Of a DNA stretch of 64,000 nt, positions 4,951 to 58,607 are shown one piece after another. Source of the DNA: Sphyrna mokarran (Eukaryota); contig JAGIQG010000040.1 of the NCBI GenBank assembly GCA_024679065.1, positions 6,076,001-6,140,000 of the forward strand, given 5' to 3'. The notes under the pieces are model-generated. The model did no database searches. It was not told the origin of the DNA and worked only from the letters and a program-made list of their open reading frames with translations. Numbering within the stretch: position 1 is the stretch's first letter; each line of letters opens with the position of its first letter. Position numbers and translations under genes: made by a program.

Positions 4951-5000
4951 TGTCTCTGTCCTCTCTGTGAAAGGGGAGAGGGGGTTTGGATATTTAGCCT

Positions 5001-16979: not shown

Positions 16980-17822
16980 TCACTTGTGCCCTTTTTGGTG
17001 TCTCCGCAGGCTGGATAACTGAGTGTATCCCTTCCCACACACAGAGCAGGGGAACGGCTTCTCCTCTGTGTGAACATGTTGGTGTGTCAGGAGGTTGGAC
17101 GATTTAGTGAATCCCATCCCACACTCTGAGCAGGTGAATGGCCTCTCGTCCTTGTGAACTCGCTGGTGTATTAGCAGGGTGAATGATTCACTGAATCCCT
17201 TCCCACACATGCTGCAGATGAACGGCCTCTCCCCGGTGTGAACTCGCTGGTGTGACAGTAGGTGGGATAACTGAGCGAATCTCTTCTCACACTCAGGGCA
17301 GGTGAATGGTTTCTCCCCAGTGTGAACGCGTTGGTGTGTCTGCAGGCTGCATAACCGAGTGAATCCCTTCCCACATGCACAGCAGGTGAATGGCTTCTCC
17401 CCAGTGTGAATTCGCTGGTGTGTCAGCAGGTTCCATGAAGTAGTGAATGTTTTCCCACATTCCTCGCAGGTGAAGGGCTTTTCCCTGGTATGAACTCGCT
17501 GATGTCTCAGAAGGTGGGATAACTGAGAGAATCCCTTCCCGCACTGAGAGCAGAAGAATGGTTTCTCCCCAGTGTGAACTCGCTTGTGCGTGTGGAGGTG
17601 GGTTAAATGAGTGAATCCCTTTCCACAGTCAGAGCAGGTGAATGGCCTCTCCCCGGTGTGAACTCGCTGATGTGTCTGCAGGTTGCACGAATGAGCAAAT
17701 CCCTTCCCACAGTCTGAGCAGGTAAACGGCCTCTCTCCAGTGTGAACGCGTCGATGAATTTCCAGCTCAGATGGGAACCGCCATTTCTTCCCACAGTCCT
17801 CACATCGCCACGGTGTCTCCAT
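16980..17822 (-). CDS. C2H2 zinc-finger protein, 280 aa, 10 fingers, no effector domain seen (ZNF-1)
   Basis: Ten CxxC-x12-HxxxH units with TGE(K/R)P linkers. Terminal-exon acceptor TTTCACAG|GATATT at 18187; exon-1 donor at 20130. Confidence 0.9.
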
Positions 17823-18394
17823 GGTGCTAGTGTACTTTTGAATCTCAAAGTTTAACGATTAGTTGAAGACTTGTCCACACACACAACAGATGCATGGTCT
17901 TCCTGTTCCAAATTATGCAAAATCTTTTCCAGGCTGTGCAACAAGTTAAAGTTCTTTCCACAGTCAGTGCACTGGAACACTCTCACTTGGATGTGTGAGT
18001 GTCTCGGTGCTTTTCCAATCACACTGATGTTTCAATCCTTTTTAAGTAAACAGAAGAAACAGATATTTCTCCTTCTAGATTCCGAAGCCAATGATAATCA
18101 GCTCCTGATGAATTCAGTGACTGTGCCAAATCTTGATGTGATGTTTGGTTTGTGATTTTTGACTGTAGTTTCTCATCTTCTAATATCCTGTGAAAGGAGT
18201 TTACAAAATCAGTACCAGGGTGAAATTCAAACCGACAATTCTCTTTTTTTTCATACTTTTATGGTATGTGGGAATCACTGGTCGGGCCACTATATGATCC
18301 CACTACTAATTGCCCTTTAAAAGCTCGTGGTGCAATGCCTTTTGAACATCAGGAACAGGAGTAAGTTAATAGTAAGAGTGGCACAAAGTCACCA

Positions 18395-18720
18395 TGGTGG
18401 CACTGTGGTTAGCACTGCTGCCTCACAGCACCAGGGACACGGGTTCAATTCCACTCTTGGGTCACTGTCTGCATAGAGTCTGCATGTTCCCTGTGTGGGG
18501 TTCCTCCAGATGCTCCGGTTTCCTCCCACGGTCCAAAGATTTGTGGGTTAAATGGATTCGCCATGCTAAATTGCCCCTTTGTGTCCCAATAGATATAGAT
18601 TAGGGGTATTAGTGGAGTAAAAATGTTGGGGTATGGGGATAGGACCTGGGAAAGATGCTGTGTTCAAGAGTCAGTGCAGAGGCTGAATGGCCTCTTTCTG
18701 CACCCTAGGGATTCTAAGAT
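18395..18720 (+). mobile_element. tRNA-derived SINE
   Basis: tggtggcactgtggttagcactgctgcctcacagcaccaggg..gggttcaattcc head plus SINE core and tail. Confidence 0.8.
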
Positions 18721-20045: not shown

Positions 20046-20129
20046 TCGCGATCGGTTGCTGCAAGTCAACAATTTCCTCCAGAATAAGAAAAGAAATGGA
20101 TAGGGGGAGAAAAGAAAGTGTTTTACTCA

Positions 20130-20800
20130 CAGATGTGGGAGACCGGAGGAAGTTTAAGTCTGTCCGAAGTGCAATCTTCATTCACACAAAGTCCGGGCTG
20201 TGATTGGCTGGAGGACCAGTATCCTTCCGGTCCTCCAAATCTTCCCATTGGTCAGCAGCTCAGCGTGAGGGTTATGGGGTGGAGACTCCGCCACGCGGCA
20301 CCGGAAGCCCCGCCCCCACCCATTGTGCCCCTCCGGGAACCCCGCCCCCCACCCATTGTTCCCCTCCGGGAACCCCGCCCCCCACCCACTGTTCCCCTCC
20401 GGAGCCCGCCCCCACCCATTGTTCCCCTCCGGGAAGCTCCGCCCCCCCCTTGTTCCCCTCCGGGAGGCCCGCCCCCCCCTCCTTGTTCCCCTCCCCCTCC
20501 CCTCCTCGAGCCAAGGTTTCCAGACAAGCGGCTGGCGGCTCCGGGCAGAGCGAGAAGCCGCTCAGTGATCTCCCCCTCCCCCTGGGCCGGGACTGCGCAT
20601 GTCCAAGGGAGAGGGAAAAGTGCGCATGTGCAGAGAGAGCCCACCCTTTGAGCCCCACGCTGAGGCGTTGACCAATAGAAAGAGTTGGACGACCGGAAGG
20701 ATTCTTGTCCTCCAGCCAATCAGAGTCTCTCTCCATTGTCTGAATGCGGAAGTTGGCCGATGAGCTTCAGAACAAAACTTCCTCCTCTGTGCAACGTCTG
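20130..20800. promoter_or_regulatory. Bidirectional CpG promoter of ZNF-1 and ZNF-2, with inverted CCAAT-ETS-CCAAT cassettes (20201-20254 and 20668-20722)
   Basis: Two inverted copies of TGATTGGCTGGAGGAC..CCTTCCGGTC.TCCA..CCATTGGTCA, NRF1-like TGCGCATGT sites, GC boxes, exon-1 donor GTGAGTAAAACAC at 20130 (-). Confidence 0.75.
20307..20495. repeat. ~32-bp GC-rich tandem repeat, ~6 copies, inside the promoter
   Basis: cccgcccccacccattgttcccctccgggaa units. Confidence 0.9.
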
Positions 20801-21039
20801 GGAGGAAATCCAAAGGCGTTCTTTCATCATGTGAAAGAGTTTGCACATTCTCCCCTGTATGTGTAAGTTTTCTCCGGGTGCTCCAGTTTCCTCACACAGT
20901 CCGAAAGATGTTAGGTGTATTGGTCATGCTGAATTCTCCCTCTGTGCATCCAAAGGGATGCTGGCGTGTGGCGCAGTAACTTCGTTGCAGTGCTAACGTA
21001 AGACTACTTGTCACACTAATGCATAAACTTCAAAACTTT

Positions 21040-21850: not shown

Positions 21851-21981
21851 TATGGTCACCTACGTTGGCAGCAAGTTCAATATCATCATCAATCACAACC
21901 TCATCCTTAGTCAAGGAAAATCATCCTTAATCAAGGAAAGTAGCCATATTTCTGTTATTTCTCCTGCCTGGAGGTTTTCAG

Positions 21982-22006
21982 CTCTCGGACTCCAGGACAG
22001 GAAGTA
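21982..22006 (+). other. Putative 25-nt micro-exon of ZNF-2 (followed by intron 22007-22229)
   Basis: ttttcag|CTCTCGGACTCCAGGACAGGAAGTA|gtaagt; homologous TCCAGGAC-R-GAAG-A|GTGAG seen at ~27290-27315 (-) and ~39120-39141 (+). Confidence 0.55.
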
Positions 22007-22578
22007 GTAAGTATATATTTATCAACAAGCCTCAATCAGCACCTTCAGGAGAATTGAGAGGGTGAATATTTGATACAGCAGAATGAGAATGGAGGGAGAA
22101 TGTGTGGGATGGAAATTTACAGCGTCTGGGGAATAAGAGAGGAAAGAATGTTCCATAGAAACTAGAATTGCCTGTTCTGAATTTCTATCCTGAACTGACT
22201 GTGATGAATTTTGTCAACTGTTTTTACAGGATATTAGAAGAAGAATCACACAGATAAATATTAAATATCACATCTTGATCTGACAGAGTCCCTCAGTTCC
22301 TTGGAAACTAAATATCCTCAGCCTCTGATTGAGAAGGAGAAATGTTTGACCGGTCTGTCGACTGCAAGATTTTAAACAACAATGTGACTGGAAAAACACA
22401 GATGCAAACACACACCCGAGTGAGTGTTCCAGTGCACTGAGTGTGGAAAGAGCTTTAAGCAGTTACACATCCTGCAAAATACATCACAGCATTCACAGCG
22501 AGGAGAGACTGTACAGTGTTGTCTGTGTGAACAAGGCTTCAAATGATAAACCTGCAACAATACAAGGAGACCAGCAAT

Positions 22579-23421
22579 ATGGAAAAACCGTGGAAATGTG
22601 AGGACTGTGGAAAGAGATACAAAGCGCCCTCTTTACTGGAAGCTCATCGTCGCAGCCACACTGGGGAGAGGCCGTTTACCTGCTGTGTTTGTGGGAAGGG
22701 ATTCAGTGATTCATCCACTCTGCAGAGACACCAGCGAGTTCACACCGGGGAGAGTGCATTCACCTGCTGTCAGTGTGGAAAGGGATTTACTCAGGTATCC
22801 AGCCTGCAGACACACCAGCGAGTTCACACTGGGGAGAGGCCATTCACCTGCTCTCAGTGTGGGAAGGGATTCAGTAAGTCATCCAACCTACAGAAGCACC
22901 AGCGAGTTCACACAGGAGAGAGGCCATTCAGCTGCTCTGAATGTGAGAAAAGATTCACTCAGGTATCTCATCTGCAGGCACACCAACGGGTTCACACTGG
23001 GGAGAGACCATTCACTTGCACTCAGTGTGGGAAGGGATTCACTCAATTGTACAGCCTGCAGACACACCAGCGAGATCACACTGGGGAGAGGCCGTACAGC
23101 TGCTCGCAGTGTGGGAAGGGATTCATTCATTTATCAAACCTGCAGACACATCAGCGAGTTCACACTGGGGAGAGGCCGTTCACCTGCTCTCAGTGTGGGA
23201 AGGAATTCACTCAGTTATCCAATCTGCGGAGACACCAGCGAGTTCACACTGGGGAGAGACCGTTCACCTGCCCTGTGTGTGGGAAGGGATTCACTCGGTT
23301 CTCTACCCTGCAGTCACACCAGCGAATTCACACTGGGGAGAGACTGCTCGTTTGTTTTCAGTGTGGGAAGGGATTCTGTGATTCATCCACTCTGCTGACA
23401 CACCAACAAGTTCACAAGTGA
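22579..23421 (+). CDS. C2H2 zinc-finger protein, 10 fingers (ZNF-2); an upstream in-frame ATG at 22543 is possible
   Basis: MEKPWKC start, 10 fingers, ends VHK*; acceptor tttttacag|GATATT at 22230. Confidence 0.9.
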
Positions 23422-27500: not shown

Positions 27501-27880
27501 GAGGACGTTTCACTCTGAAGCTCATTGGCCAACTTCTCCATTGTGACATCACAATGGTGCCCTGCCTGAATCAACCAATCCGCAATGTTGTCTTCTTGCT
27601 CCAATGGGAGACTGAGCGTTAGGAACGTCCACGCGAGAATCAGCCAATAGGAATCAGTCCTGGTGATCTTCCCCTCCCCCCCCCGGTCTGGGACTGCGCT
27701 TGTCCGAGGGACAAGGAAACTGCGCATGTGCGGGGGCGTGCCCACCCTTGACCTTCTGAGGAATTGACCAATGGAAAGATTCGGAGGTCCGGAAGGACTC
27801 TGGTCCTCCAGCCACTCAGAGCGCGGGATATGTGTGAATGAAGATTGATCTTCAGAACTTCCTCCTGCCCAACATCTGTG
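27500..27880. promoter_or_regulatory. Bidirectional promoter of ZNF-3 and the orphan module; cassette 27764-27818, exon-1 donor at 27878
   Basis: TTGACCAATGGAAAG..CCGGAAGG..GGTCCTCCAGCCACTCA; TGCGCATGTGCG; palindrome CATTGTGACATCACAATG; CATCT|GTGAGTAAAACAC. Confidence 0.7.
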
Positions 27881-29241
27881 AGTAAAACACTTTCTTTTCT
27901 CCCCCTTTCCATTGCTTTTCTCGTTCTGGGAGAAACTGGAGACTCGCAGCAACTGATGGGAGAGGAAATGAATAAAGGGAGGCTGCAGACTCTGGAAAGA
28001 TTGGCCCAGGTCTCTTTCTCTTAAAGACATTGACATCCTTTGCTCCCTCAGCTTGACACGTTGATTTGTCTGTCTAGAAGGTCCCTTTTCTAATGTTCAC
28101 AATTAAAGGGCTAGTTTCCCGAAGAGATAGCTGACATTTGATGGGACAGTAAATTAATATTGGGACAGAGATATGATAAAGTATATTTAAAATTGTAATT
28201 AGCTGTGTAACATATATTTCATTATAATTGTATAACATATAATTGTAATTAGCTGTGTTATATATTTCTAGTCACCTGTTCAAACAGGGACTTGTTAGTT
28301 TTAGATTTATCCCACAGGAATCAGTGGAGGCTGAGGGCCATTTAATATATTCCAGGGTCAGTTACACTGATTTTTGATTGATAAAGGAGTCCAACGTTAT
28401 AGGGAACAGGTCAGAAAATGCAGATAAAGTTAAGGTGAGGAGGAATTTCCTCACTCAAGGATGTGGTGACATTTTGGAATTCTGCACCCCAGAGGACTGT
28501 GGAATCTCAGCCATCAAGAATTTTCAAGCTGGAGATGGATAAGTTTTGAGATATTGAAGACGTGGGGGACTGTATGGGAAATAATACTGAGGTAGATCAG
28601 CCAATTCTTAATGAATGAGTGAGGCAGTTCGATAGCTGAATGGCCAACTGCAGCTCCTATTTCTATGCTCACTGTGTTCAGGAAGGAGGCAATGAGCATA
28701 GATCTGTCAATCAGCATCTTCAGGAGAATTGGGAGGGTGAATATTAGATACAGCAGAATGAGAATGGAGGGAGAGTGTGTGAGATGGAGATTTACAGCTT
28801 TTGCACAATGAAAGGAAAGAACATTCCATAGGAACTAGAGTTGTCTGTTCTGAATTTTTATCCTGTACTGACAATGATGACTTACATAAATTTCTTTCAC
28901 AGGATATTGAAAAAGGAATCACAGGCTGGAATCTCAAATGTCATGCCTAGATCTGACAGAGTCATATTCCTTGGGATGTGAGTATCATTGGCCTTTGAAT
29001 CGAGAAGAAGAATTGTCTGGTCTGTTGATTTGAAAAGATTTCAAACATCAGTGGAAAAGCTCCAACACATTGCACATTCAAGTGAGAGTGTTCCAGTGCA
29101 CAGACTGAAGAGCTTTAACAGTTACACAGCCTGAATAAAAATCACACCATACACTGCGGGGAGACTGTACTTGTGTTCTGTGTGTGTGGATGAGGCTTCC
29201 ACTGATTGTCCACCTAAGAGAGAGGCAAGGACACCTGCAAC

Positions 29242-30336
29242 ATGGAGAAACCATGGAAATGTGCGGACTGTGGGAAGAAATATAAAGTTCCATCTCGGCT
29301 GGAAATTCATCGACGCAGTCACACTGGAGAGAGGCCGTTCATCTGCTCTCAGTGTGGAGAGGGATTCACTTGGTTATCCACTCTGCAAAGACACCAGCGA
29401 GTTCACACTGGAGAGAGGCCATTCACCTGCTCTCAGTGTGGGAAGGGATTCATTCAATCATCCAGTCTGCGGGCACACCAGCGAGTTCACACTGGAGAAA
29501 AGCCATTCACCTGCACCCTGTGTGGGAAGGGTTTCATTCAGTCATCCCACCTACTGAATCACAAAACTACGCACACTAATGAGAGACGCTTTAAATGCTC
29601 TGACTGTGGGAGCAGCTTCAAAACCTCTGGTGAACTGGTGTTCCACCAGCGCATTCACACTGAGGAGAGACCATTCAGCTGCTCTCATTGCACCAAGAGG
29701 TTTAGAAGGTCATCACATCTGCAGACACACCAGCGAGTTCACACCGGGGAGAGACCATTTACCTGCACCGTATGTGGGAAGGGATTCACACAGTTATCCA
29801 GCCTATGGGCACACCAGCAAATTCACACTGGGGAGAGGCCATTTACCTGCTCTGTGTGTGGGAAAGGATTCACTCTGTCATCGAACCTGCTCAGACACAA
29901 AATCACTCACACCCAGGACAGACCCTTCAAATGTCCTGATTGTGGGAACGGATTCAAACGTGCTTCAGACCTGAAGGACCACGAGCGAATTCACACTGGG
30001 GAGAGACCGTTCAGCTGCTCTGTGTGTGGGAAGGGATTCACTCAGTTATCCCACCTATTGAATCATAAAGTCACTCATAGCAATGAGAGACCCTTTGAAT
30101 GTTCTGACTGTAAGAGTAACTTCAAAAGCTCTCAAGATCTGATGTCCCACCAACGTGTTCACACTGAGGAGAGACCATTCAGTTGCTCTCACTGCACAAA
30201 GAGGTTTAAATGGTCATCTGCACTGCAGAGACACCAGAGAGTTCACACTGGGGAGAGGTTATTCACCTGCTCTGTGTATGGAAAGGGATTCACTCAGTTA
30301 TCCAGCCTGCTGAAACACGAGCAAGTTCACAAGTGA
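29242..30336 (+). CDS. C2H2 zinc-finger protein, 364 aa, 13 fingers, last one with a C->Y change (ZNF-3)
   Basis: MEKPWKC start, TGERP linkers, VHK* end; acceptor at 28903. Confidence 0.9.
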   Translation: MEKPWKCADCGKKYKVPSRLEIHRRSHTGERPFICSQCGEGFTWLSTLQRHQRVHTGERPFTCSQCGKGFIQSSSLRAHQRVHTGEKPFTCTLCGKGFIQSSHLLNHKTTHTNERRFKCSDCGSSFKTSGELVFHQRIHTEERPFSCSHCTKRFRRSSHLQTHQRVHTGERPFTCTVCGKGFTQLSSLWAHQQIHTGERPFTCSVCGKGFTLSSNLLRHKITHTQDRPFKCPDCGNGFKRASDLKDHERIHTGERPFSCSVCGKGFTQLSHLLNHKVTHSNERPFECSDCKSNFKSSQDLMSHQRVHTEERPFSCSHCTKRFKWSSALQRHQRVHTGERLFTCSVYGKGFTQLSSLLKHEQVHK

Positions 30337-32930: not shown

Positions 32931-32933
32931 GGT

Positions 32934-38600: not shown

Positions 38601-38719
38601 CACTTTTTTTTCTCTCATTCTAGACTTTAATTTTTAACTTCCAGGTCATCACTCATTGCCTCAATCAGGATCCTCCTTACATTTTTCACATATCTCTTGC
38701 CATGTATTATACACGTCGT

Positions 38720-41220: not shown

Positions 41221-43139
41221 CACACAGATGGCAGGATGGCTTCTTTCTGAGCTGTAGTGAATCTGTTCTGTACTGTGTGCCATGGTCTTCCTGGTGTCAG
41301 ATCCCCAAAACCTGACTCAATTCTCAAACAGCAACTGAACCATTGTTGAGAAGTTTATTTTATAAAATGTAGGATGATTTTTTTAAACACACTCCCCAGC
41401 TTGAATGATTTCTGTATCTAAACTCTTGGTGGCAATTTATTAAAGTACAGGGTGTAATATTTTGTGTTGTGGGAGATAATAGTTTAGTCTGAGTTGGAGA
41501 GTCAAACAGGCTCTTTACTGCAGACAGCTTACCATGGCAGCACTGATAAGACATTCCATTGCACGGAATCAACTCTGAAACCCTTGCCTCAGGCCCGATT
41601 GTACTCAGTAGCCACTAATGATTTAACATGTTTTTGTGACTATCTTGAATCAATGACTTTAAGGCTGGTGTTACTAATTTAAAATAAACCCATTCAAACT
41701 AATTTATAAGAGTCTGTATTAAAATATCAGGTGGAGGAATTCACAGAAGCTTGTTAACCCTGGGACAATGATACAACAGACATTGAGTGAAGCACAGATC
41801 CGACCTGGAAACTGGAGGAGTGAATATTGGAAATACCGCCCCTCCAGCACTCAGTGCCTTGTGACTTCACCCATAGCTCTGAGCTCGTAGACACAGAACA
41901 GAAGCTCCTTTACAACTGGGCTTAGAGTCAGGAAAAATAAAGGGGAAGGCTGGAAACGTGCTGTCAAATCAGAGATTGGTGTAAAACTGGGATGTATTCC
42001 TGACTGAGAGTGAAACAGTGGGTTCAAATTTCTGGGGCTGAAAAATGATTGGTAATTATTATGTGATGGTTCCATCTAGCCAGCAGAATTTCTAATATCA
42101 GGGAGAGACACAGAAGTACTGCTTCCCAGTCTGGAATCCAATCGCTTCCCAGTAAAGCTGAAAGTGAATCCTTGGATTCCTCTGTGAAGGAACAACCCGA
42201 CCTTCATCTGTCAATCAATCTTCCCATAACAATTCCAAAGGGACGTAAACTCGGAAAACTCAGGACACTCCATTGGGCCCAAATTACAAATAAAAAGGCC
42301 AATTGTGTTTCCATCAGACGTCACGGCAACGATCCAAAAAAGGATTAAAATACATTCTTTAAATGCACAGTAGCATCACAAGTGAACACTGTAGAATTGA
42401 CTCCACTGATTTGTGAGCTCACTGGTACCTCAGAAGACGAGATGTTTGATTCAATCCTTTCTGTAAGTAATTGAATTCTCAATGATATTCCACATCTTGT
42501 ATTTTATTTACGATGGCATATCTTTAAAACGGGAAATTATTGGATACAACCTGCTGCTCCTTCCTTTTCAGAAAGTATAAGAAATAGGAGCAGGAATCAG
42601 TCATTTCACCCACCGAGATTGCTCTGCCAATCAATGAGATTGTGGCTGGTCAGATTATGGCTGATTGCAGCCTGAACTCCACATTCCTGCCTTGCTCCCA
42701 TTACCTTCACCTCCCTTTTGATCAAAGCTGTGTGGAGTTCAGCCTTGAATATATTTAATGACCCAGCCTCCACTGCTCTCTAAGGAGAGAGAACTCCAAA
42801 AGTGAATGAGAAGAAATTCCTCTTCTTCTCCCATTTAATTCCTCCTCACCTCCCCGAATATTATTAAATACTCTGCGCTTCCAGTTCGAGATTTCCAGAT
42901 GGAAAACATCCTCTCAGCATCCACCCTGTCAAACCCTCTCAGAATAAGATTGTCTCTCATTCTGATAAACTCTGTGGTCAGACCCAACTTTCCACATAAA
43001 ATAACCCCTTCATCCCGGGAATCAGCCCAGTGAACCTTCTCTGAACTGCTTCTAACACAATAGTATTTTGTGCGTTTTAATGAAAACAGGAACAAATATT
43101 TGTTCAAAGTCTGGGCCATTTATCATTTATTTCTCAAAC

Positions 43140-43405
43140 TTAAAGTTTATTAATCACAAGTAAGGTTTGCATTAACACAGCAGTGAATTTACTGTGAAAT
43201 TCCCCGAGTTGCCACTCTATGGCACCAGCTTAGGTCAATGCATTTAACCAACATGACTTTCGACTGTGGGAGGAAACTGGAACACCCGGAGGAAACCCAC
43301 GCAGACACAGGGAGGACGTGCAAACTCCGTACAGATAGTGACCCAAACCAGGAATTGAACCCGGGTTCCTGGCCGTGTGAGGCAGCGGTGTTAACCACTG
43401 TGCTG
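43140..43405 (-). mobile_element. tRNA-derived SINE with an aataaacttt-type tail (mirror ~59074-59340, +)
   Basis: Head gcagcacagtggttaacaccgctgcctcac..gggttcaattcc. Confidence 0.8.
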
Positions 43406-43872
43406 CCTCATCTTACCTGCTAAGGAACCAATGCTCACTTCATCTATTGTATTCCATTTTTATAAACTTGGAGAAAATTTACTTTGAAATTTTTCCTGTG
43501 AGTTTCCCGACATTCTCCATTTTCCAAAACATTCTGTGGTTTTAGAGAGGAATGGGGAGTTGGGAATCAGAAGTAGTTTGCACAGACGGTGGGATCAAGA
43601 GCTGGTTCTTTGAGGATGGGGCTGATGTTGACAGTTTTGCAGATACTGACAGGACCCGAGGCAAGAGAACAATTAAAACAATCAGCTCACACGGGGAAGG
43701 AACAGACAGAACAGCCTCTCCCCAACATCAGTGTGCTGGTTTACAGTGAATTGAGATGATTGTCTGAACTCAGCCCTATAGTGAGAGCATCCGAATAGTC
43801 TCTTGTCAGTGTCACATGTTGATGGGACATCGGTTCGTCCAATCTTCCACAGCACTTCCTGGAGTTGAGCAT

Positions 43873-44421
43873 TCAGACACATTTCTTATCAGTGTGACTG
43901 CGCTGGTGTTTCCGCAGGTTGGCTAACCGAGTGAATCCTTTCCCACACCCAGGGCAGGTGAATGGTTTCTCCCCAGTGTGAACTCGCTCATGTGCCAGCA
44001 GGTTCGATGAGTGAGTGAATCCCATCCCACAGTCAGAGCAGAGGAATGGTCTCTCCCCAGTGTGAACTCTCCGGTGGTTCAGCAGGTTGTATGAATGAGT
44101 GAATCGCTTTCCACAGTCAGAGCAGATGAACGGCCTCTCCCCGGTGTGAATTCGCTGATGTGTCACCAGACTGGAAGACTGAGTGAATCCCTTCCCACAC
44201 ACGGGACAGGTGAACTGTCGTTCCCCAGTGTGATTTCGCTCATGAGCTTTCAGTTCAAATGGGTAACTGAATCCCTTCCCACAGTCCCCACATTTATAGG
44301 GTCTCTCTCCAGTGTGAACGTGCTTGTGTCTCAACAGGCCAGATGATCGGCTGTAGCCTTGCCCACACTCAGAACACATGTACGGTTTCTCCGCACTCTT
44401 AACGGTGCTTTTACTTTCCAT
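43873..44421 (-). CDS. C2H2 zinc-finger protein, 6 fingers (ZNF-6a)
   Basis: First ATG at 44421 ([16 protein letters not shown]); acceptor TTTCACAG|GGTATT at 44523; CCAAT/GC-box region at ~44860-44950. Confidence 0.85.
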
Positions 44422-45894
44422 GTTCAAATTCTGATGATACTGAAGTTCTGATGAATTGGGTGACTCTCAGATCCTGAGGTGATGTTCAAATTTCCCAACT
44501 GCAAATCCTCAACTTCCAATACCCTGTGAAATTCATTTAAAATAGAAAAAAAGGGAATGAGAGAGACCCCACAAAACACAAAGGCAGCTTGTGAAATTGA
44601 GCTGAACAAATCTGGTAATTTGTGAAGCTGGCAGGAGGAAAAAATGACCATAAAAACTGCTTGATTGTCACAAAAACTCAACTGGCCTTTACAGAAGCCG
44701 AGAGAAAGAGGTGAAGGAGAGGGATTTTGTATATCTACAAGACATACTAAGACAGTAGACAGCAAAGCAAATTTGACCCTGAGCTTCATAAAGTGTGATA
44801 TTGAGATATAAACAGGGAAGTTATCCTGAATATTTATAAAGTTCTGGTCACCACTTAAGACTCCGCCCCTCATTCACTCTGATTGGTTGGAGGATGTGTC
44901 ACTCCCCCTCAGTCCTCTTCCTATTGGTTCGAAGCTGCCGTCAATCAGCCCCCGGGCATTGTGATGCGGGGCATGCACAGTGTGGCTCATGTCCAGGGAC
45001 AGGCGCTTGTTAGTTTCACCTTCAGGCGGGAAGGAGGTGGTTAAGCAGAGGCAGCGTTAGAGGCAGCAGGTGGGAGGGGAGGCCTCAACATTCAGGGCAA
45101 ACCCCATTCATCAGGGTCTGGATATTATCAGCCTTTGAGTTTAAACATTGAGTTCCAGCTCATTACTGCTTACTATAGAAAAGAAATTATTTTCACTATC
45201 TCTCTTTCTAAAATCTTAAAACTCTGTTCATAAGTTTGTCAGATACAAGAGCAGAATTAGGCCATTCAGCCCATTAGTTTTCTCTGTCATTTGATCATGG
45301 CTGATATACTCCTCATCCCCATTTTCCTGCCTTCTCCCCATCACTGTTCAACCCATTACCAATTAAAAATCTGTCTAACTCCTCCTTAAATTTACTCATT
45401 ACTATCCAGTATAAAGTTATTGTACGATATAGAAACTAAGAGTAGGCCATTTGATCTGAACAAAAAAAGAACAAAACAGCACGGGGCCCTGCTCCACCAT
45501 TCAATATGATCATGGCTGATCCTCTACCTCAATGCTATATCCTTTCCATACCACCCAAATACCCATTAAAATCTAAAACGAAAACTATCTCTTCCTTGAA
45601 AATATTCAGTGATTTCGATTCCACAGCCCTCTGTGATAGAGAATTTCCCACGTTCACTGTCCTTTGATGTTTTTCCTCATTTTAGTCTCATGTGACATCT
45701 GGTTTCATGGATCATTTCAGTGGGAGTGTGCCCTTGCTCAAAGGGAATCAGCCACTGGAATTAAAATAGAGAGACTGTCCAGTCCAACAGCAAGAAACCC
45801 TCTGACCCTCCCACTTCACCGACTGTCAGAATGAACGTGCTTCAGTCCTGGATATGATTAACAGCAGCAATAAAGCAAAATCCAACTCCTGTCA

Positions 45895-47325
45895 TCACTT
45901 GTGAACTGGTTGATGTTTCAACAAGCTGGATAACTGAGTGAATCCCTTCCCACACACAGAGCAGGTAAATGGCTTCTCTCCAGTGTGGATTCGCTGGTGG
46001 GACAGCAGGGTGGATATCTGAGTGAATCCCTTCCCACAGTTAGAGCAGGTGAATGGTCTCTCCCCCGTGTGAACTCGCTGGTGTATCAGCAGCGTGGACG
46101 TCCGAGTGAATCCTTTCCCACAATCAGAACAGATAAACGGTCTCTCTCCAGTGTGAACTCGCTGGTGTGTCTGCAGCGCAGATAAATCACTGAATCCCTT
46201 CTCACACTCTGAGCAGGTGAACGGTCTCTCCCCAGTGTGAACTCGCTGGTGTCTCTGCAGCTGGAATGACCGAATGAACCCCTTTCCACACACAGAGCAG
46301 GTGAATGGTCGCTCCCCAGTGTGAACTCGCTGGTGTGTCTGCAGTGCAGATAAATCACTGAATCCCTTCTCACACTCTGAGCAGGTGAACGGCCTCTCCC
46401 CAGTGTGAACTCGCTGGTGTCTCTGCAGATGGAATGACCGAATGAACCCCTTTCCACACACAGAGCAGGTGAATGGTCTCTCCCCAGTGTGAACTCGCTG
46501 GTGTATCAGCAGTGTGGATGCCCGAGTAAATCCCTTCCCACAATCGGAACAGGTAAATGGTCTCTCTCCAGTGTGAACTCGCTGGTGTGTCTGCAGCGCC
46601 GATAAATCACTGAATCCCTTCTCACACTCTGAGCAGGTGAACGGCCTCTCCCCAGTGTGAACCCGCTGGTGTCTCAGCAGGTGGAATGATCGAATGAATC
46701 CCTTTCCACACACGGAGCAGGTGAATGGCTTCTGCCCAGTGTGGACTCGCTGATGTGTCAGCAGGGTGGCTAACTGGCTGAATCCCTTCCCACAATCGGA
46801 GCAGGTAAACGGTCTCTCCCCAGTGTGAACTCGCTGGTGTGTCAGCAGAGTGGATGACCGAGAGAATCCCTTCCCGCAATTGGAGCAGATGAACGGTCTC
46901 TCCCCAGTGTGAACTCTCTTGTGTCTCAGCAGGCTGGAGGAATCTCCGAATCCTTCCCCACACACGGAGCAGGTGAACGGTCTCTCTCCAGTGTGAACGA
47001 GCTGGTGTGTCAGCAGATGGGATGACTGAGTGAATCCCTTCCCACAACTGGAACAGGTGAACAGTCTCTCCCCAGTGTGAACTCGCTGGTGTTTCAGCAA
47101 GTTGGAAGACTGAGTGAATCCTTTCCCACAATTGGAGCAGGTGAACGGTTTCTCCCCAGTGTGAACTCGCTGGTGTGCCAGTAGGGTGGAGGAATCTGCA
47201 AATCCTTTCCCACAATTGGAGCAGGTGAATGGTTTCTCCCCAGTGTGACGGCGTCGATGTGTTTCCAGCCCAGACGGGAATCTGAATCCCTTTCCACAAT
47301 CCTCACATTTCCACTGTTTTCCCAT
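45895..47325 (-). CDS. C2H2 zinc-finger protein, 476 aa, 17 fingers (ZNF-7a)
   Basis: Intact ORF MGKQWKC..VHK*. Confidence 0.92.
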
Positions 47326-47759
47326 GGGGTGGGTGTCTATGTCTCAGTGTTTCTCTTGACACTCTGATGGTTAAACAGGCGTTGGTTTCCCATCCTAATG
47401 AATGATTCCGTCAGAGCTTGATGTGAAGTTTTGTTTGAAATTTCTGATGGCAAATCCTCCCCTTTTAATATCCTGTAAAAGGAGTTTACAAATGTCACCA
47501 CTGTCGATACAGCTCAGAAACAATAGGCAATCCTAGGTGCGGTGGAACATTCTTTCCTCCCTGGTTTAAAGTGAATAATGAATTTAAAACGTCATTGCAA
47601 GTCAGCAAATCAATCAAAATGCTCACATAGGAGTTGCATTTATCTCCAGATGTACAGAAATCAGAAATAGTGAAATTCTGTTCAATTCATACAGAATCTT
47701 AAGAATCTGTAGAATCCTTGCAGTACAGGAACTGCATCAAGTCTGCACCGATGACTTGG

Positions 47760-48005
47760 ATGAATGAACATGGTTCAATCCTGGACATGATTAACAGCAG
47801 CAATAACAGCAGAATCCAACCCCTGTCATCACTTGTCAACTTGCTAGTATCTCAGCAGGTGGAATACTAAGTAAATCCCTTCCCATAATCAGAACAGGTA
47901 AATGCTCCCTCACCAATGTGTCAGCAAGTGGAATGACCGACTGAACCCCCTCCACACACAGTGCAGGTGAACGGCCTTTCCCCAGTGTGAACTTGCTGGT
48001 GAATC
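47760..48005 (-). pseudogene. Decayed ZNF 3' end plus conserved 3' UTR, upstream of the ZNF-7 acceptor (mirror ~54475-54720, +)
   Basis: caccagcaagttcacac.ggggaaaggccgttcacctgc.. followed by tgatgacaggggttggattctgctgttattgctgctgttaatc. Confidence 0.7.
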
Positions 48006-48733
48006 ACACCAGCCCCAGAACCATAGAATCTTGCACAGATAATAGAGCACAGCACTAAAAACTTTGAACTGTAGATGAGTGCTCAATAATACTTCTGGAA
48101 CAATTTCACTGTTTTCAAATTTAAACTTGCTGCTGGAGTCTACAGCTGGAAAGATGTCAAAAGCACTGGAGTGAAAGGAAAAATTGCAGTCTCTAAATCT
48201 TCTAACTCTCTGTAAAAGCAGATTATAAGACTCATGTCAACTGTGGTTCAAAATTAGGAAATAAATATTTTTCTTTGTTTGAGATTGCTGTGTAAATTCT
48301 CACTTCTAAACCCCTGGAAAAGGAGTTTCCAAAATTCATCATTCAGTCCAGGATAGAAACAGAGAATATTCTCTCCTCCTGCTTCCTGATGTAGGATTAG
48401 TTAAGATCAATATGTTTACATTGGGAATAATTCAGACAAGATGCGCTAAGCTGATTCAGGACACAAATGGGTTTGTTTTATGAAGAAAGTTTGGGCAGGA
48501 TGCATCTGTAATCATTGAATTTTAGAGAAATGAAAGATGAACTTATTGAAGCATATAAGATTATCTGGGTGCTTGATAAAATAAGTTCTGAAAGGATATT
48601 TCTCCTCAATGGTGAATCTATAACAGCAGGTCGTTAAAAATAAAGCTCTAAGATAAAGATGCTTGCCACTTGAACACACCACTCTGACTTCCTGTCCACA
48701 CATCCATCCTTGGCCTTTTGCAATGTTCAAATG

Positions 48734-48833
48734 NNNNNNNNNNNNNNNNNNNNNNNNNNNNNNNNNNNNNNNNNNNNNNNNNNNNNNNNNNNNNNNNNNN
48801 NNNNNNNNNNNNNNNNNNNNNNNNNNNNNNNNN
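48734..48833. other. Assembly gap (100 N)
   Basis: Run of exactly 100 N. Confidence 1.
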
Positions 48834-49119
48834 GACACACCAGCGAGTTCACACCGGGGAGAAACCGTTCATCTGTTCAAAGTGTGGGAAGGGATTCAGT
48901 CAATCATCCAACCTAGCAATACATCAAAGGATTCACACTGGGGAGAGGATGTTCACTTGTTCCCAATGTGGGAAGGGCTTTGCTCACTTACACACGCTGC
49001 AGGGTCACCAACGAGTTCACACTGGAGAGAAGCCATTCACTTGCTCTGTGTGTGGGAAGGGATTCAGTCAGTCATCAAATCTGTTGAAACACCAGCGAAT
49101 TCACAAGGAACTATTCTGA
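48834..49119 (+). CDS. 3' end of a C2H2 ZNF gene truncated by the gap (3 complete fingers visible)
   Basis: [22 protein letters not shown]. Confidence 0.8.
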
Positions 49120-49369
49120 TTGAATTTTGCTGTGAATCATGTTCAGACTGGACCATGTTCATTTGGGTCTGGTTCTGCTGAATTGAAAAGTGACTCCTGT
49201 CCTGCTATAGGTGTTAATATAGTTGATCTGAGAATGGGAGGTTTGGGATCAGGGAATTCACAGAAAACCTCAGATCAGGATTGGATGGAGCCACACAATT
49301 TATCGTAACCTAGATTATAGAGAATTTTGAACCTGAAGGAAACAGCATTGTTCTCAACCACCATCACAT

Positions 49370-49630
49370 GAGGGAGAGACCGTGGAAATGTGGAGACTGT
49401 GAGGAGAGACTCAGTTACTTGTCAGAGCTAGAAACACAGTGATGCATTCACACTGTGGGGAGGCCATTCACTCGCTCTGAATGTGGGAAGGGATTTTACT
49501 CAGTCTTCTGAGGTGATTATAAATCAGTGAGTTCACACTGGGGAGAAACCATTCAACAGCCCTGAGTTTCAGAAGAGATTCAGTCGGCCATCCACACTGC
49601 TGAGTCACCAGCAAGTTTACAACTAACCAT
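49370..49630 (+). pseudogene. Degenerate ZNF relic
   Basis: gagagaccgtggaaatgtggagactgtg..cacactggggagaaaccattc with stops and frameshifts. Confidence 0.7.
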
Positions 49631-51104
49631 GGTGATTGGATTTATCTGTTAATCACATCAAGGACCGAACTGTGTTCAATGTAAGTGAACTGGTAAATGA
49701 GGTTAAAGGACAGGTTAATAGAGGTGCAGTTATTCTTCTGGATTTTTTCTTTTGGAGAGCTATTACATTATTTCTGCTGTGAAATGGGAACTACTATTAT
49801 CCTCTACCCATTTCAGGATGCCTTATCCAGAATTTTAGTTATTGTGTCTGCATCATTTTTACAAACAGGGAAGGTTACAATCCATCAGGTAAGCATACCT
49901 GTAATTAGCAGGACATACCAGTCTCCTCCTTTTAGTGTGGTGAGTGGGCCTGTATAATCAAGCTGCAATGTTTCCCAGGGAACATCAATAATATGGAATG
50001 TGTTAATTGGGAAAATGCATTTTGCAGAATCTGATTAATTTGAACACGAGGCACAAATTCAGGTGCTGATGGACATTCTGATGCAGCTTCAGCCACTGAA
50101 AGTATGATCATGTTATATAATATTGAGGAGTCACAAAACAAGAAATATGCCCTGTTTTGATCCACCAAATATACTAATTCTTTTCTAAGCTATTGAGTTG
50201 TGACTAAAGTCAAAGTTAAGCCATATTTGTGAAAGAAAACTTCATTATGTCAGATGAATGAGTTCTTACTTGCTGTGAATGATGAGAGAAAGTTTCCTCG
50301 ATGGTGCCCACCCTCTTTGCCCACAATCATCTTAGATCAGTGTCCTGACAGGTTTTTAACTGATATGTAACTGGAGTCTGTTGTACCAGTTCCAATGATT
50401 GTGTTTTGGGTGGATCTCATGGAATCTCCTGGTGAGTCAGTCTCCTTGCTTATTACCGTCACTCTTCACTAACTCCTGCTGACCTACCTTCACCTGACAA
50501 ATAGCAATTTGTCCTGGACATCCAGTAACATTCCCAATCATTCAGAGTTTGGAATGATGAGGAATGATTTCCTTTCTGCTGTGGAGAAGCTGTGTTTTCT
50601 CCCCCAGAGGGGTAGGTTTCTGAGGGAATTACAACCAAAGTAGCTTTCAGAATATTTCGTGATTATATCGGAAACAGTTTGAAGGGCTGTGATCGCAATA
50701 ACCTCAGAGTTCTGGGCTAAATTTTGCGATCGTGGTGGGTATTTAGTAAGGATACTACAACTGTTGTGGAGAATCAAACATGCAGCTCCACTCTGATACA
50801 AACCTTGTTCATAAAACCAACACCTGATCGCACAAACCCCAGTGCAATGCAACAGTTGTTTGTCTTTAACAGGTTCATTAGACAAGACTGCTTTTGCCTG
50901 ACTGAGATGTAGGATTTTTTCATACTGAAACATCCCAGCCAAGAAATAATTATGAAGATTCAGGACATGAATGCTTTTTCTTTGTGGTTCCATAATTCAA
51001 CCACTTGAACACATTGTAAAACTCCATTGGCGTTTTAGGATAATGTCACTGCAGTATTTGGGGACTGCCGAAATATACAATTAAACTCTGCCAGGCACTT
51101 TATG

Positions 51105-53425: not shown

Positions 53426-55153
53426 GTCCTGCCTACAGTGGCACAGTGTCCATTCAGAGATCAGAATGTTTTGAACGGCAGAACAGAAGTATAGATGGTT
53501 AAGGCAGTTGGCCTGGAGGGAAGAGGCACAAAAAGAAGAATGGAAAAATGGAAGTGGAAAAATAGAAGAGAGAAAGAAGAGTGACATAAATGGATGAATG
53601 AGATGAAAAGATGAAATAAAATTAAGTAAAACTAATGGAAATTCGGTGAGGAGGAGAGAGTTCAGGCTGTAAACTTGTTCACTCAATGTTCAATTAGGAA
53701 GGCTGTAAAGTGCCCATTTGGAAGATGAGGTATTGTTCTTTTGGTTTGCTTTGGGGTTCAAAAGGCCAAGGATGGATGTGTGGACAGGAAGTCAGAGTGG
53801 TGTGTTCAAGTGGCAAGCATCTTTATCTTAGAGCTTTATTTTTAACGACCTGCTGTTATAGATTCACCATTGAGGAGAAATATCCTTTCAGAACTTATTT
53901 TATCAAGCACCCAGATAATCTTATATGCTTCAATAAGTTCATCTTTCATTTCTCTAAAATTCAATGATTACAGATGCATCCTGCCCAAACTTTCTTCATA
54001 AAACAAACCCATTTGTGTCCTGAATCAGCTTAGCGCATCTTGTCTGAATTATTCCCAATGTAAACATATTGATCTTAACTAATCCTACATCAGGAAGCAG
54101 GAGGAGAGAATATTCTCTGTTTCTATCCTGGACTGAATGATGAATTTTGGAAACTCCTTTTCCAGGGGTTTAGGAGTGAGAATTTACACAGCAATCTCAA
54201 ACAAAGAAAAATATTTATTTCCTAATTTTGAACCACAGTTGACATGAGTCTTATAATCTGCTTTTACAGAGAGTTAGAAGATTTAGAGACTGCAATTTTT
54301 CCTTTCACTCCAGTGCTTTTGACATCTTTCCAGCTGTAGACTCCAGCAGCAAGTTTAAATTTGAAAACAGTGAAATTGTTCCAGAAGTATTATTGAGCAC
54401 TCATCTACAGTTCAAAGTTTTTAGTGCTGTGCTCTATTATCTGTGCAAGATTCTATGGTTCTGGGGCTGGTGTGATTCACCAGCAAGTTCACACAGGGGA
54501 AAGGCCGTTCACCTGCACTGTGTGTGGAGGGGGTTCAGTCGGTCATTCCACTTGCTGACACATTGGTGAGGGAGCATTTACCTGTTCTGATTATGGGAAG
54601 GGATTTACTTAGTATTCCACCTGCTGAGATACTAGCAAGTTGACAAGTGATGACAGGGGTTGGATTCTGCTGTTATTGCTGCTGTTAATCATGTCCAGGA
54701 TTGAACCATGTTCATTCATCCAAGTCATCGGTGCAGACTTGATGCAGTTCCTGTACTGCAAGGATTCTACAGATTCTTAAGATTCTGTATGAATTGAACA
54801 GAATTTCACTATTTCTGATTTCTGTACATCTGGAGATAAATGCAACTCCTATGTGAGCATTTTGATTGATTTGCTGACTTGCAATGACGTTTTAAATTCA
54901 TTATTCACTTTAAACCAGGGAGGAAAGAATGTTCCACCGCACCTAGGATTGCCTATTGTTTCTGAGCTGTATCGACAGTGGTGACATTTGTAAACTCCTT
55001 TTACAGGATATTAAAAGGGGAGGATTTGCCATCAGAAATTTCAAACAAAACTTCACATCAAGCTCTGACGGAATCATTCATTAGGATGGGAAACCAACGC
55101 CTGTTTAACCATCAGAGTGTCAAGAGAAACACTGAGACATAGACACCCACCCC

Positions 55154-56584
55154 ATGGGAAAACAGTGGAAATGTGAGGATTGTGGAAAGGGATTCAGATT
55201 CCCGTCTGGGCTGGAAACACATCGACGCCGTCACACTGGGGAGAAACCATTCACCTGCTCCAATTGTGGGAAAGGATTTGCAGATTCCTCCACCCTACTG
55301 GCACACCAGCGAGTTCACACTGGGGAGAAACCGTTCACCTGCTCCAATTGTGGGAAAGGATTCAATCAGTCTTCCAACTTGCTGAAACACCAGCGAGTTC
55401 ACACTGGGGAGAGACTGTTCACCTGTTCCAGTTGTGGGAAGGGATTCACTCAGTCATCCCATCTGCTGACACACCAGCTCGTTCACACTGGAGAGAGACC
55501 GTTCACCTGCTCCGTGTGTGGGGAAGGATTCGGAGATTCCTCCAGCCTGCTGAGACACAAGAGAGTTCACACTGGGGAGAGACCGTTCATCTGCTCCAAT
55601 TGCGGGAAGGGATTCTCTCGGTCATCCACTCTGCTGACACACCAGCGAGTTCACACTGGGGAGAGACCGTTTACCTGCTCCGATTGTGGGAAGGGATTCA
55701 GCCAGTTAGCCACCCTGCTGACACATCAGCGAGTCCACACTGGGCAGAAGCCATTCACCTGCTCCGTGTGTGGAAAGGGATTCATTCGATCATTCCACCT
55801 GCTGAGACACCAGCGGGTTCACACTGGGGAGAGGCCGTTCACCTGCTCAGAGTGTGAGAAGGGATTCAGTGATTTATCGGCGCTGCAGACACACCAGCGA
55901 GTTCACACTGGAGAGAGACCATTTACCTGTTCCGATTGTGGGAAGGGATTTACTCGGGCATCCACACTGCTGATACACCAGCGAGTTCACACTGGGGAGA
56001 GACCATTCACCTGCTCTGTGTGTGGAAAGGGGTTCATTCGGTCATTCCATCTGCAGAGACACCAGCGAGTTCACACTGGGGAGAGGCCGTTCACCTGCTC
56101 AGAGTGTGAGAAGGGATTCAGTGATTTATCTGCACTGCAGACACACCAGCGAGTTCACACTGGGGAGCGACCATTCACCTGCTCTGTGTGTGGAAAGGGG
56201 TTCATTCGGTCATTCCAGCTGCAGAGACACCAGCGAGTTCACACTGGGGAGAGACCGTTCACCTGCTCAGAGTGTGAGAAGGGATTCAGTGATTTATCTG
56301 CGCTGCAGACACACCAGCGAGTTCACACTGGAGAGAGACCATTTATCTGTTCTGATTGTGGGAAAGGATTCACTCGGACATCCACGCTGCTGATACACCA
56401 GCGAGTTCACACGGGGGAGAGACCATTCACCTGTTCTAACTGTGGGAAGGGATTCACTCAGATATCCACCCTGCTGTCCCACCAGCGAATCCACACTGGA
56501 GAGAAGCCATTTACCTGCTCTGTGTGTGGGAAGGGATTCACTCAGTTATCCAGCTTGTTGAAACATCAACCAGTTCACAAGTGA
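55154..56584 (+). CDS. C2H2 zinc-finger protein, 476 aa, 17 fingers (ZNF-7b)
   Basis: Identical to ZNF-7a except FNQSSNL vs FTQSSNL in finger 3; acceptor ttttacag|GATATT at 55007. Confidence 0.92.
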
Positions 56585-58058
56585 TGACAGGAGTTGGATT
56601 TTGCTGTCATTGCTGCTGTTATTCATATCCAGGACTGAAGCACGTTCATTCTGACAGTCGGTGAAGTGGGAGGGTCAGAGGGTTTCTTGCTGTTGGACTG
56701 GACAGTCTCTCTATTTTAATTCCAGTGGCTGATTCCCTTTGAGCGAGGGCACATTCCCACTGAAATGATCCATGAAAGCAGATGTCACATGAGACTGAAA
56801 TGAGGAAAAACATCAAAGGACAGTGAACGTGGGAAATTCTCTATCACAGAAGGCTGTGGAATCGAAATCACTGAATATTTTCAAGGAAGAGATAGTTTTC
56901 ATTTTAGATTTTAAAGGGTATTTGGGTGGTATGGAAAGGATATAGCATTGAGATAGAGGATCAGCCATGATCATATTGAATGGTGGAGCAGGGCCCCGTG
57001 CTGTTTTGTTCTTTTTTTGTTCAGATCAAATGGCCTACTCTTAGTTTCTATATCGTACAATAACTTTATACTGGATATTAATGAGTAAATTTAAGGAGGA
57101 GTTAGACAGATTTTTAATTGGTAACGGGTTGAACAGTGATGGGGAGAAGGCAGGAAAATGGGGATGAGGAGTGTATCAGCCATGATCAAATGGCAGAGAA
57201 AACTAATGGGCTGAATGGCCTAATTCTGCTCTTATATCTGACAAACTTATGAACAGAGTTTTAAGATTTTAGAAAGAGAGATAGTGAAAATAATTTCTTT
57301 TATATAGTAAGCAGTAATGAGCTGGAACTCAATGTTTAAATTCAAAGGCTGATAATATCTAGACCCTGATGAATGGGGTTTGCCCTGAATGTTGAGGCCT
57401 CCCCTCCCACCTGCTGCCTCTAACGCTGCCTCTGCTTAACCACCTCCTTCCCGCCTGAAGGTGAAACTAACAAGCGCCTGTCCCTGGACATGAGCCACAC
57501 TGTGCATGCCCCGCATCACAATGCCCGGGGGGTGATTGACGGCAGCTTCGAACCAATAGGAAGAGGACTGAGGGGGAGTGACACATCCTCCAACCAATCA
57601 GAGTGAATGAGGGGCGGAGTCTTAAGTGGTGACCAGAACTTTATAAATATTCAGGATAACTTCCCTGTTTATATCTCAATATCACACTTTATGAAGCTCA
57701 GGGTCAAATTTGCTTTGCTGTCTACTGTCTTAGTATGTCTTGTAGATATACAAAACCCCTCTCCTTCACCTCTTTCTCTCAGCTTCTGTAAAGGCCAGTT
57801 GAGTTTTTGTGACAATCAAGCAGTTTTTATGGTCATTTTTTCCTCCTGCCAGCTTCACAAATTACCAGATTTGTTCAGCTCAGTTTCACAAGCTGCCTTT
57901 GTGTTTTGTGGGGTCTCTCTCATTCCCTTTTTTTCTATTTTAAATGAATTTCACAGGGTATTGGAAGTTGAGGATTTGCAGTTGGGAAATTTGAACATCA
58001 CCTCAGGATCTGAGAGTCACCCAATTCATCAGAACTTCAGTATCATCAGAATTTGAAC

Positions 58059-58607
58059 ATGGAAGGTAAAAGCACTGTTAAGAGTGTGGAGAAACCGTAC
58101 ATGTGTTCTGAGTGTGGGCAAGGCTACAGCCGATCATCTGGCCTGTTGAGACACAAGCACGTTCACACTGGAGAGAGACCCTATAAATGTGGGGACTGTG
58201 GGAAGGGATTCAGTTACCCATTTGAACTGAAAGCTCATGAGCGAAATCACACTGGGGAACGACAGTTCACCTGTCTCGTGTGTGGGAAGGGATTCACTCA
58301 GTCTTCCAGTCTGGTGACACATCAGCGAATTCACACCGGGGAGAGGCCGTTCATCTGCTCTGACTGTGGAAAGCGATTCACTCATTCATACAACCTGCTG
58401 AACCACCGGAGAGTTCACACTGGGGAGAGACCATTCCTCTGCTCTGACTGTGGGATGGGATTCACTCACTCATCGAACCTGCTGGCACATGAGCGAGTTC
58501 ACACTGGGGAGAAACCATTCACCTGCCCCGGTTGTGGGAAAGGATTCACTCGGTTAGCCAACCTGCGGAAACACCAGCGCAGTCACACTGATAAGAAATG
58601 TGTCTGA
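58059..58607 (+). CDS. C2H2 zinc-finger protein, 6 fingers (ZNF-6b)
   Basis: Mirror of ZNF-6a with 3 aa differences (S/G, A/V, P/L). Confidence 0.85.

Follow-up and report, generated by a model that had tools for sequence, protein, structure and literature searches.

The window analysed here is a 64,000-nucleotide (nt) stretch of the 2.77-Gb genome of Sphyrna mokarran (C994:6076001-6140000, C994 being the contig that holds it), and it carries seven members, ZNF-1 to ZNF-7, of a large zinc-finger family whose open reading frames (ORFs) mostly start at a Met standing in the linker between two fingers. These genes are tandem C2H2 (Kruppel-type), with repeated C-x2-C-x12-H-x3-H units and TGEKP-type linkers, and the occurrence of linker-start, finger-only ORFs is real and family-wide. 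The probable explanation is a tandem C2H2 family of the shark lineage, in which a constant first finger (finger 1) likely docks a protein in the place of a KRAB-type domain, while the variable fingers downstream are predicted to select DNA targets, repeats likely included. The gene structure is well supported, the putative built-in effector finger is a sharp lead, and targeting of transposable elements (TEs) is suggested by analogy. Numbers were given to the genes by order along the window, a presumed match to the preliminary description, which came without per-gene coordinates.

Finger ORFs were sampled from the window and 120 further loci (1.12 Mb), many of which were chosen by family sequence, so that the counts are not genome-wide fractions. 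Among 134 ORFs of at least four fingers in this enriched sample, 118 have both the linker Met and a signature finger, six have the signature finger without the Met and ten are of other kinds. The main class (class A) is defined by at least two of three signature residues in finger 1, namely Trp, Pro+1 and Glu+5. A 21-mer spanning the start is matched exactly at 163 places in the genome, against 0 for a reversed control, so the linker start does not arise by chance. In tiles not picked by the 21-mer it is carried exactly by 12 of the 32 intact genes, and 82 of 98 start sites lead to at least four fingers, the other 16 being without such an ORF; from these two fractions about 360 intact genes are estimated genome-wide, a rough figure with a wide error. 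Fingers account for 29,036 of 30,283 residues. A strong Kozak context with both A at -3 and G at +4 surrounds 91 of the 103 main ATGs of a non-redundant gene set against 10 of 157 upstream ATGs, because Thr-Gly-Glu is written ACN-GGN-GAR and an ATG in the middle supplies both letters. The TGE linker thus offers an easy route to new N-termini, becoming a strong start site once its Gly codon turns into ATG, and ribosomes very probably scan past the weak, short upstream ORFs (uORFs) to initiate there. The family start or its upstream relic is found also in gene models of Mustelus, Heterodontus, Chiloscyllium, Scyliorhinus, Cetorhinus and Pristiophorus, which makes the layout old among sharks (the range compared being that of shark models). 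P0001 (Mustelus), P0009 (Chiloscyllium) and P0023, P0036 and P0114 (Heterodontus) share the N-terminal start and signature finger under generic automatic names only, and the nearest named relatives of the first 44 residues of ZNF-2 are from Mustelus (84%), Heterodontus (79%), Chiloscyllium (77%) and Scyliorhinus (74%).

A six-frame scan of the window located the finger ORFs of ZNF-1 to ZNF-7. Positions 38506-48720 and 53759-64000 form an inverted duplicate, 99.0% identical, with an N gap at 48734-48833 and an arm that runs past the window; ZNF-5, ZNF-6 and ZNF-7 are therefore each present twice. The features are as follows, with protein lengths in amino acids (aa), CDS for coding sequence and UTR for untranslated region.

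16980-17822, minus strand: ZNF-1 CDS from the six-frame ORF scan, Met in linker, 280 aa, 10 fingers.
17823-18187, minus strand: ZNF-1 last-exon 5' UTR, with acceptor at 18187, relic spacer, dead fingers and an in-frame TAA at 17859-17861.
20131-20325, minus strand: first exon of ZNF-1, bearing the CCAAT-CCGGAAG-CCAAT cassette and a GT donor; once spliced it offers short uORFs only (21-39 codons), and its 5' end is a contig end, not a mapped one.
20190-20810, no strand: divergent GC-rich promoter region of ZNF-1 and ZNF-2, in which the cassette recurs in inverted orientation.
22230-22578, plus strand: ZNF-2 last-exon 5' UTR, with decayed fingers and a 4-nt deletion near the relic stop.
22579-23421, plus strand: ZNF-2 CDS, 280 aa, 10 fingers.
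27760-27877, plus strand: ZNF-3 promoter cassette and predicted first exon, donor at 27878; no contig join seen.
28903-29241, plus strand: ZNF-3 last-exon 5' UTR, with decayed fingers and the family TGA at 29203-29205.
29242-30336, plus strand: ZNF-3 CDS, 364 aa, 12 fingers.
36412-37582, minus strand: ZNF-4, ATG at 37582, frameshifted in the window copy.
38028-38160, minus strand: ZNF-4 promoter cassette and predicted first exon; the usual acceptor and most of the intron are deleted.
39364-40125, plus strand: ZNF-5 pseudogene, ATG at 39720, 57-aa ORF, no intact finger; mirror-copy ATG at 62785 on the minus strand.
43873-44421, minus strand: ZNF-6, 182 aa with 6 fingers, a sister-class (MEGKST) gene that has retained the TGERP linker and the finger upstream of it.
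58059-58607, plus strand: ZNF-6 mirror copy, with CGA (Arg) at the family's TGA and Gly at the family's Met.
45895-47325, minus strand: ZNF-7 mirror copy, 476 aa, 17 fingers.
55154-56584, plus strand: ZNF-7 CDS, 476 aa, 17 fingers, acceptor at 55007, relic fingers deleted.

The ORFs of ZNF-1, -2, -3, -4, -5 and -7 begin M-E/G-K/T-P/Q-W-K/R-C, as the preliminary description had it, and their Met aligns exactly to the Gly of the TGERP linker of ZNF-6; ZNF-5, which had been counted among the main ORFs of the family, is on the other hand a pseudogene. The decayed finger sequence reported at 22400-22560 and 29080-29200 does lie in the same exon as the ORF, as judged by alignment and contigs. That such sequence is out of frame holds in part only: the relic is often in frame but stopped, as in ZNF-1 and ZNF-3, and in ZNF-7 it has been lost through a deletion that leaves a UTR of 147 nt. 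In ZNF-4 a 7-nt deletion shifts the frame after finger 1, while the mirror copy at L107 is intact with 392 aa. ZNF-2 has an in-frame ATG of weak context 12 codons upstream of the linker Met, and on its side of the divergent promoter GG stands where a GT donor would be expected.

The roughly 340 nt upstream of the start consist of a relic spacer and three dead fingers. The promoter is GC-rich and often divergent, and the first exon, lying in a CpG island, has the CCAAT-CCGGAAG-CCAAT cassette followed by a GT donor. Splicing was assessed on assembled contigs (X1, X2, X6 and X7) from runs guessed to be RNA. Record 19 of X6, a contig of a related species, runs from 20130-20268 straight into 18002-18186 and thereby matches the predicted GT-AG junction of ZNF-1; record 4 of X1, a near-identical contig (2 differences in 196), ends at the same donor, and contigs of all four runs span the relic stop and ATG of ZNF-1 uninterrupted. 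Contig joints at ZNF-3 were considered as splices and rejected, being non-canonical with unknown letters between, and were taken as deletions in paralogues. UTRs and introns were aligned for 64 genes, the larger non-redundant set comprising 103. Not one UTR is open from acceptor to ATG, be it among the 54 of the non-redundant set in which the acceptor was located or the 51 of the 64-gene set, so no domain can be added through an exon spliced to the usual acceptor. An in-frame stop occurs within 12 open codons upstream of the ATG in 80 of 103 genes. In the spliced leader of ZNF-1, ORFs of 16-39 codons open at five upstream ATGs and none extends to the CDS; a conserved peptide from the exon-1 ATG was likewise discarded, as that frame stops after 8 codons in the C749 copies and other frames occur elsewhere. 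The relic is a non-coding 5' UTR.

The 165-nt unit of promoter, first exon and donor, homologous to window positions 20100-20260, was also compared between loci selected by likeness to the ZNF-1 promoter. It is 98.8% identical among 7 genes of the C794 cluster (L041-L057), 98.2% among 4 genes of the C749 cluster (L004-L017) and 91.5% between the two. The last-exon UTRs of the same genes are 72% identical and their finger 1 80-84%. Since the cassette is near-identical within a cluster and the UTR and finger 1 are far less so, it has likely been homogenised by cluster-wise gene conversion.

The constancy of finger 1 goes beyond the preliminary description and is new here. Among the 118 ORFs, Trp precedes the first Cys in 114, Pro+1 is present in 116 and Glu+5 in 111, and the signature occurs in none of 1039 fingers from position 3 on and in none of 3043 fingers of 125 non-shark proteins. 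Over 24 independent pairs, and at similar synonymous difference (pS), nonsynonymous difference per site (pN) amounts to 0.02 at both +1 and +5 of finger 1, while in finger 2 it reaches 0.28 at +1 and 0.25 at +5. Position +5 of a finger faces away from the bases. The helix of finger 1 has a net charge of -0.5, that of other fingers +0.6 to +1.1. The signature is retained in models of Mustelus, Heterodontus, Scyliorhinus and Chiloscyllium, and it also marks the second finger in 19 of 23 intact sister-class rows, counted by eye, three of the four misses being ZNF-6 copies; the signature finger is older than the linker Met. Finger 1 may thus, tentatively, be a protein-docking surface. A homodimer prediction for fingers 1-2 scored 0.03 against a mark of 0.32 and is uninformative in either direction.

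Several observations weigh against this account. With respect to gene structure, the single clear exon-1 join was seen in a related species whose sequence is about 92% identical, on contigs whose RNA nature is a guess; the same join was looked for in the contigs for ZNF-3 and none was seen; acceptors were located in just 54 of 103 genes; and uORFs that overlap out of frame show no clear depletion (19 of 157, or 12%, against 16% expected). Positive selection at contact residues was not found in 11 close pairs (pN/pS 0.73), and the tree that separates the two classes is unrooted, the classes differing by a deletion as well. With respect to finger 1, the signature counts are partly circular, the class being defined by two of the three residues (10 of 134 ORFs lacked it); entropy at -1/+3/+6 is 2.7/2.9/2.1 against 2.7/2.9/2.2 in finger 2 and fits DNA contact equally; the predicted model is an ordinary finger (predicted local distance difference test, pLDDT, 85.7) with no extra strand; and ZNF-6 is without two of the three signature residues in an intact ORF. 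The last three points would be expected if, under the same gene structure, finger 1 were a DNA-binding or capping finger at the end of the array, the proteins having no effector and acting by occupancy, competition or the partners of generic fingers. The signature is missing from one further intact sister-class gene, and mammals have a recognised class of C2H2 genes without an effector (PMC2443715). Such a role is nevertheless rather unlikely: Pro+1 and Glu+5 are some ten times more constrained than the same sites of finger 2, the constraint persists where the signature finger stands second, and the two residues are never found together with Trp in the other fingers examined.

The docking account is challenged also by the idea that a hidden upstream coding exon, with a KRAB-like or FiNZ-like effector, is spliced in frame via an acceptor near the ATG. 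KZNF and FiNZ genes are laid out in this way (PMC10547256), the spacer of the relic has an acidic composition and in five places remains open over 44-70 codons, and gene models of Heterodontus and Pristiophorus read through it. A conserved intronic block at 21963-22115, 28670-28800 and 39100-39250 holds a possible small exon with a GTGAG donor; it is covered by contigs, with no join seen. The idea is very improbable given that none of the 54 UTRs is open, acceptor-like sites downstream of the nearest in-frame stop exist in 2 of 64 genes, the first exon yields only short uORFs and no Pfam match lies in the 6 upstream ORFs scanned. A search with the spacer gave just the Heterodontus and Pristiophorus models, and one of these (P0141, from the sawshark Pristiophorus), in which histone H2A is joined to the family relic spacer, is likely a mis-joined model; as it contains the spacer, the same relic and stop are present in a distant shark order.

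Domain searches agree with the absence of a KRAB, SCAN or BTB exon asserted in the preliminary description. None of the three had a Pfam match in the 6 promoter and intron ORFs scanned. Genome-wide, KRAB gave 5 matches (60 of 60 candidates scored), none of them on C994, C749 or C794 or within the sampled clusters; three lie at L061-L063 (C668:3.76-3.93 Mb), and the best, on C668, presumably resembles a PRDM9-type KRAB. SCAN gave at least 120 dispersed matches (150 of 204 candidates scored), with none on C994 or the sampled clusters. BTB gave at least 148 (150 of 213 scored), none in the window and one on C994 at 4.99 Mb, where a BTB-domain ORF open for 449 aa (G000:C994:4991695-4992021) stands within the finger-gene region of that contig. 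A FiNZ-type coding exon was sought in the spliced ZNF-1 leader, where no ATG-started ORF reaches the CDS; no FiNZ profile was run. In a profile search for longer relatives, long tetrapod arrays crowded the best 120 of 7920 matches, and the 7 Heterodontus rows among these 120 had no KRAB, SCAN or BTB accession; an ESM Atlas search returned generic C2H2 clusters only. The in-frame domain exon that characterises KRAB-ZFP, SCAN-ZNF, BTB-ZNF and FiNZ-ZNF genes was thus not found, and ORF counts, closed UTRs and domain searches together bear out an effector-less, finger-only family of the shark lineage with its start in a linker.

The ORFs are under purifying selection. In the 11 close pairs pN/pS is 0.03 for core residues, 0.35 for others and 0.73 for contact residues (p=0.18 against neutrality for the latter), the core ranging over 0.02-0.06, and in 24 distant pairs the uncorrected ratio at contacts is 1.1-1.2. 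Contacts are diverse, with 278 fingerprints in 454 inner fingers. The view that the majority of copies do little, having arisen neutrally in a region prone to duplication or in part through assembly duplication, would suit the large duplications of 97-99% identity, the N gap at an arm end and the 16 of 98 broken start sites, but it is highly improbable in view of the 82 intact ones, the low core ratios and the fact that the paralogues are mostly old yet open. Rapid turnover, as first proposed, is borne out only in part: the 16 start sites without an ORF of at least four fingers speak for it, and against it stand the scarcity of recent pairs (pS below 0.2 in just 11 independent pairs among 118 genes) and a star-like tree with long end branches (median 0.16). 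The family is an old radiation with some recent segmental copies, most paralogues being old. Repeats may perhaps be the main targets, judging by analogy with other systems. The abundance of TEs nearby, from which such targeting had been argued, is no support for it, because a zinc-finger factor acts in trans. On the broadest view, which is unlikely as a whole, sharks would possess a repeat-silencing system of several hundred genes, founded by the linker start, in which finger 1 rather than KRAB or FiNZ recruits a co-repressor and the cassette is gene-converted cluster by cluster.

The relic itself has decayed without trace of coding constraint. Column identity is 0.79-0.80 in the relic against 0.79 in the intron (64 genes), identity by codon position is 0.82/0.76/0.80 with no pattern in the relic finger and 0.92/0.87/0.82 in finger 1, and UTR lengths modulo 3 are spread over 23/13/15 genes, so that frame is not kept. 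Its old upstream start is still ATG in 2 of 27 motif matches. That the shared TGAs (TGA in 48 and TAA in 4 of 60 ungapped rows at the column 13 codons upstream of Met, and a second TGA further upstream in 23 of 30 motif matches) are read through, or the frames shifted, into a longer protein with the upstream fingers is scarcely credible when UTR lengths do not preserve the frame, additional stops and indels abound, codon positions show no pattern and several nearby non-stop triplets are as conserved (0.77-0.84) as the stop. For the same reasons, rescue of the relic by read-through or frameshift and a special conservation of its stop codon were both rejected as candidates, the latter as not separable from its surroundings. 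The best-kept relic, L028:3714-4100, has spacer and upstream fingers in one frame except for stops, and its linker Met is replaced by Val.

ZNF-6 had been put forward as the likely ancestral state. It does keep the ancestral TGERP linker, and the family TGA, 13 codons upstream of Met, aligns to an Arg codon (CGA) in its intact upstream finger; however, it belongs to a sister class of at least 30 genes with an MEGKST start, has lost two signature residues and is no ancestor. That class has the acceptor and spacer in common with the main class and is missing two of the three upstream fingers; the remaining one is mostly degenerate and followed by a normal linker, the signature finger standing second. 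As the classes separate with support 100/100 in a tree of 38 and 19 rows (2 of 40 sampled rows were dropped for short UTRs) and the sister class lacks two upstream fingers, ZNF-6 is a derived sister. The ancestor would have had the spacer and three more fingers ahead of the signature finger. The linker Gly codon would then have become Met, born into a strong Kozak context with A -3 from the Thr codon and G +4 from the Glu codon; nonsense mutations (TGA in place of an Arg codon 13 codons upstream, then another TGA farther away), together with loss of the old start, would have made 5' UTR of the upstream part, and the linker-start form, of single origin, would have expanded. On the minus strand of L022 the start is of the sister-class type, the upstream finger is open, and the linker Met is already there with no stop; the locus may be an intermediate, in which the Met preceded the stop, or else a recombinant. 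Met occupies the linker position also in L147, a sister-class copy that is broken.

Among known systems, the FiNZ-ZNFs of cyprinid fish (Wells et al. 2023, PMC10547256) are similar in being lineage-specific, clustered, two-exon tandem C2H2 genes in their hundreds, in a lineage described there as without KRAB-ZFPs. They differ in bearing an acidic 28-aa domain on its own coding exon, whereas exon 1 of the shark family yields none in frame and it is a finger that stays constant; the FiNZ genes are also reported to be under positive selection and to repress TEs, and the shark family is likened to them from sequence alone, with a contact pN/pS of 0.73. The same paper relates ZNF to retroelement numbers across animals. 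The KRAB-ZFPs of sarcopterygians and KRAB-like ZNFs of ray-finned fish (PMC11603059, PMC10380595) likewise form clusters of TGEKP-linked arrays with pseudogenes and diverse contacts, but the shark family has no KRAB exon and the KRAB matches of the shark genome lie elsewhere. KRAB-box families are described as lost in cartilaginous fish (PMC8455134), and ZNF expansions as independent in some fishes (PMC2604467). Class 'NONE' C2H2-ZNF genes (PMC2443715) are also finger-only, their N-terminal parts lost by degeneration; there the loss recurs gene by gene, whereas the shark family has one layout (linker Met, shared stops, signature finger) inherited across hundreds. Protein-binding N-terminal fingers are known in flies, and the dimerising CGx-phi fingers of dipterans (PMC12774644) resemble shark finger 1 as specialised N-terminal fingers of finger proteins.

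Tandem CWCH2 fingers, too, are reportedly specialised fingers used for protein contacts. Neither the CGx-phi nor the CWCH2 motif is present in shark finger 1, whose Trp stands ahead of the first Cys and whose predicted fold has no extra strand. Large shark ZNF counts are already in print, with 475-3586 ZNF ORFs per genome in eight cartilaginous fish rows of the supplement of PMC10547256, while sharks are absent from its main text. A description of the linker-start family was not found in the literature searched (subscription journals not covered, that supplement only in part), within which the architecture appears new. The family is a concrete candidate for how the fingers of cartilaginous fish act, through one 28-residue finger with three diagnostic residues, and its diagnostic start helps to mend shark gene models, which often extend into the dead upstream part or fuse neighbours.

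The window stands at the centre of a very large inverted duplication of 97-99% identity (window 1456-48720 against 53759-64000 and L107-L110; L117-L120 and L125-L126), which recurs once more at C994:5.16-5.20 Mb and 4.89-4.90 Mb; the arm end has an N gap, and the duplication may partly be one of the assembly. Positions 537-5340 and 6580-11387 form a tandem duplicate, 97.9% identical. In both copies there is a U1 snRNA gene (3139-3303, 9183-9347) together with an immunoglobulin V-set segment (4488-4907, 10528-10947) that we take to resemble a T-cell receptor V. At 12887-13870 lies a 66-bp tandem repeat of 14.9 copies, with a 367-codon open frame on the minus strand whose Pfam scores are driven only by the repeat. 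Additional finger-gene fragments are found at 48834-49650, 54160-54700 and, in mirror copy, 47760-48300, a decayed finger exon upstream of ZNF-7 among them.

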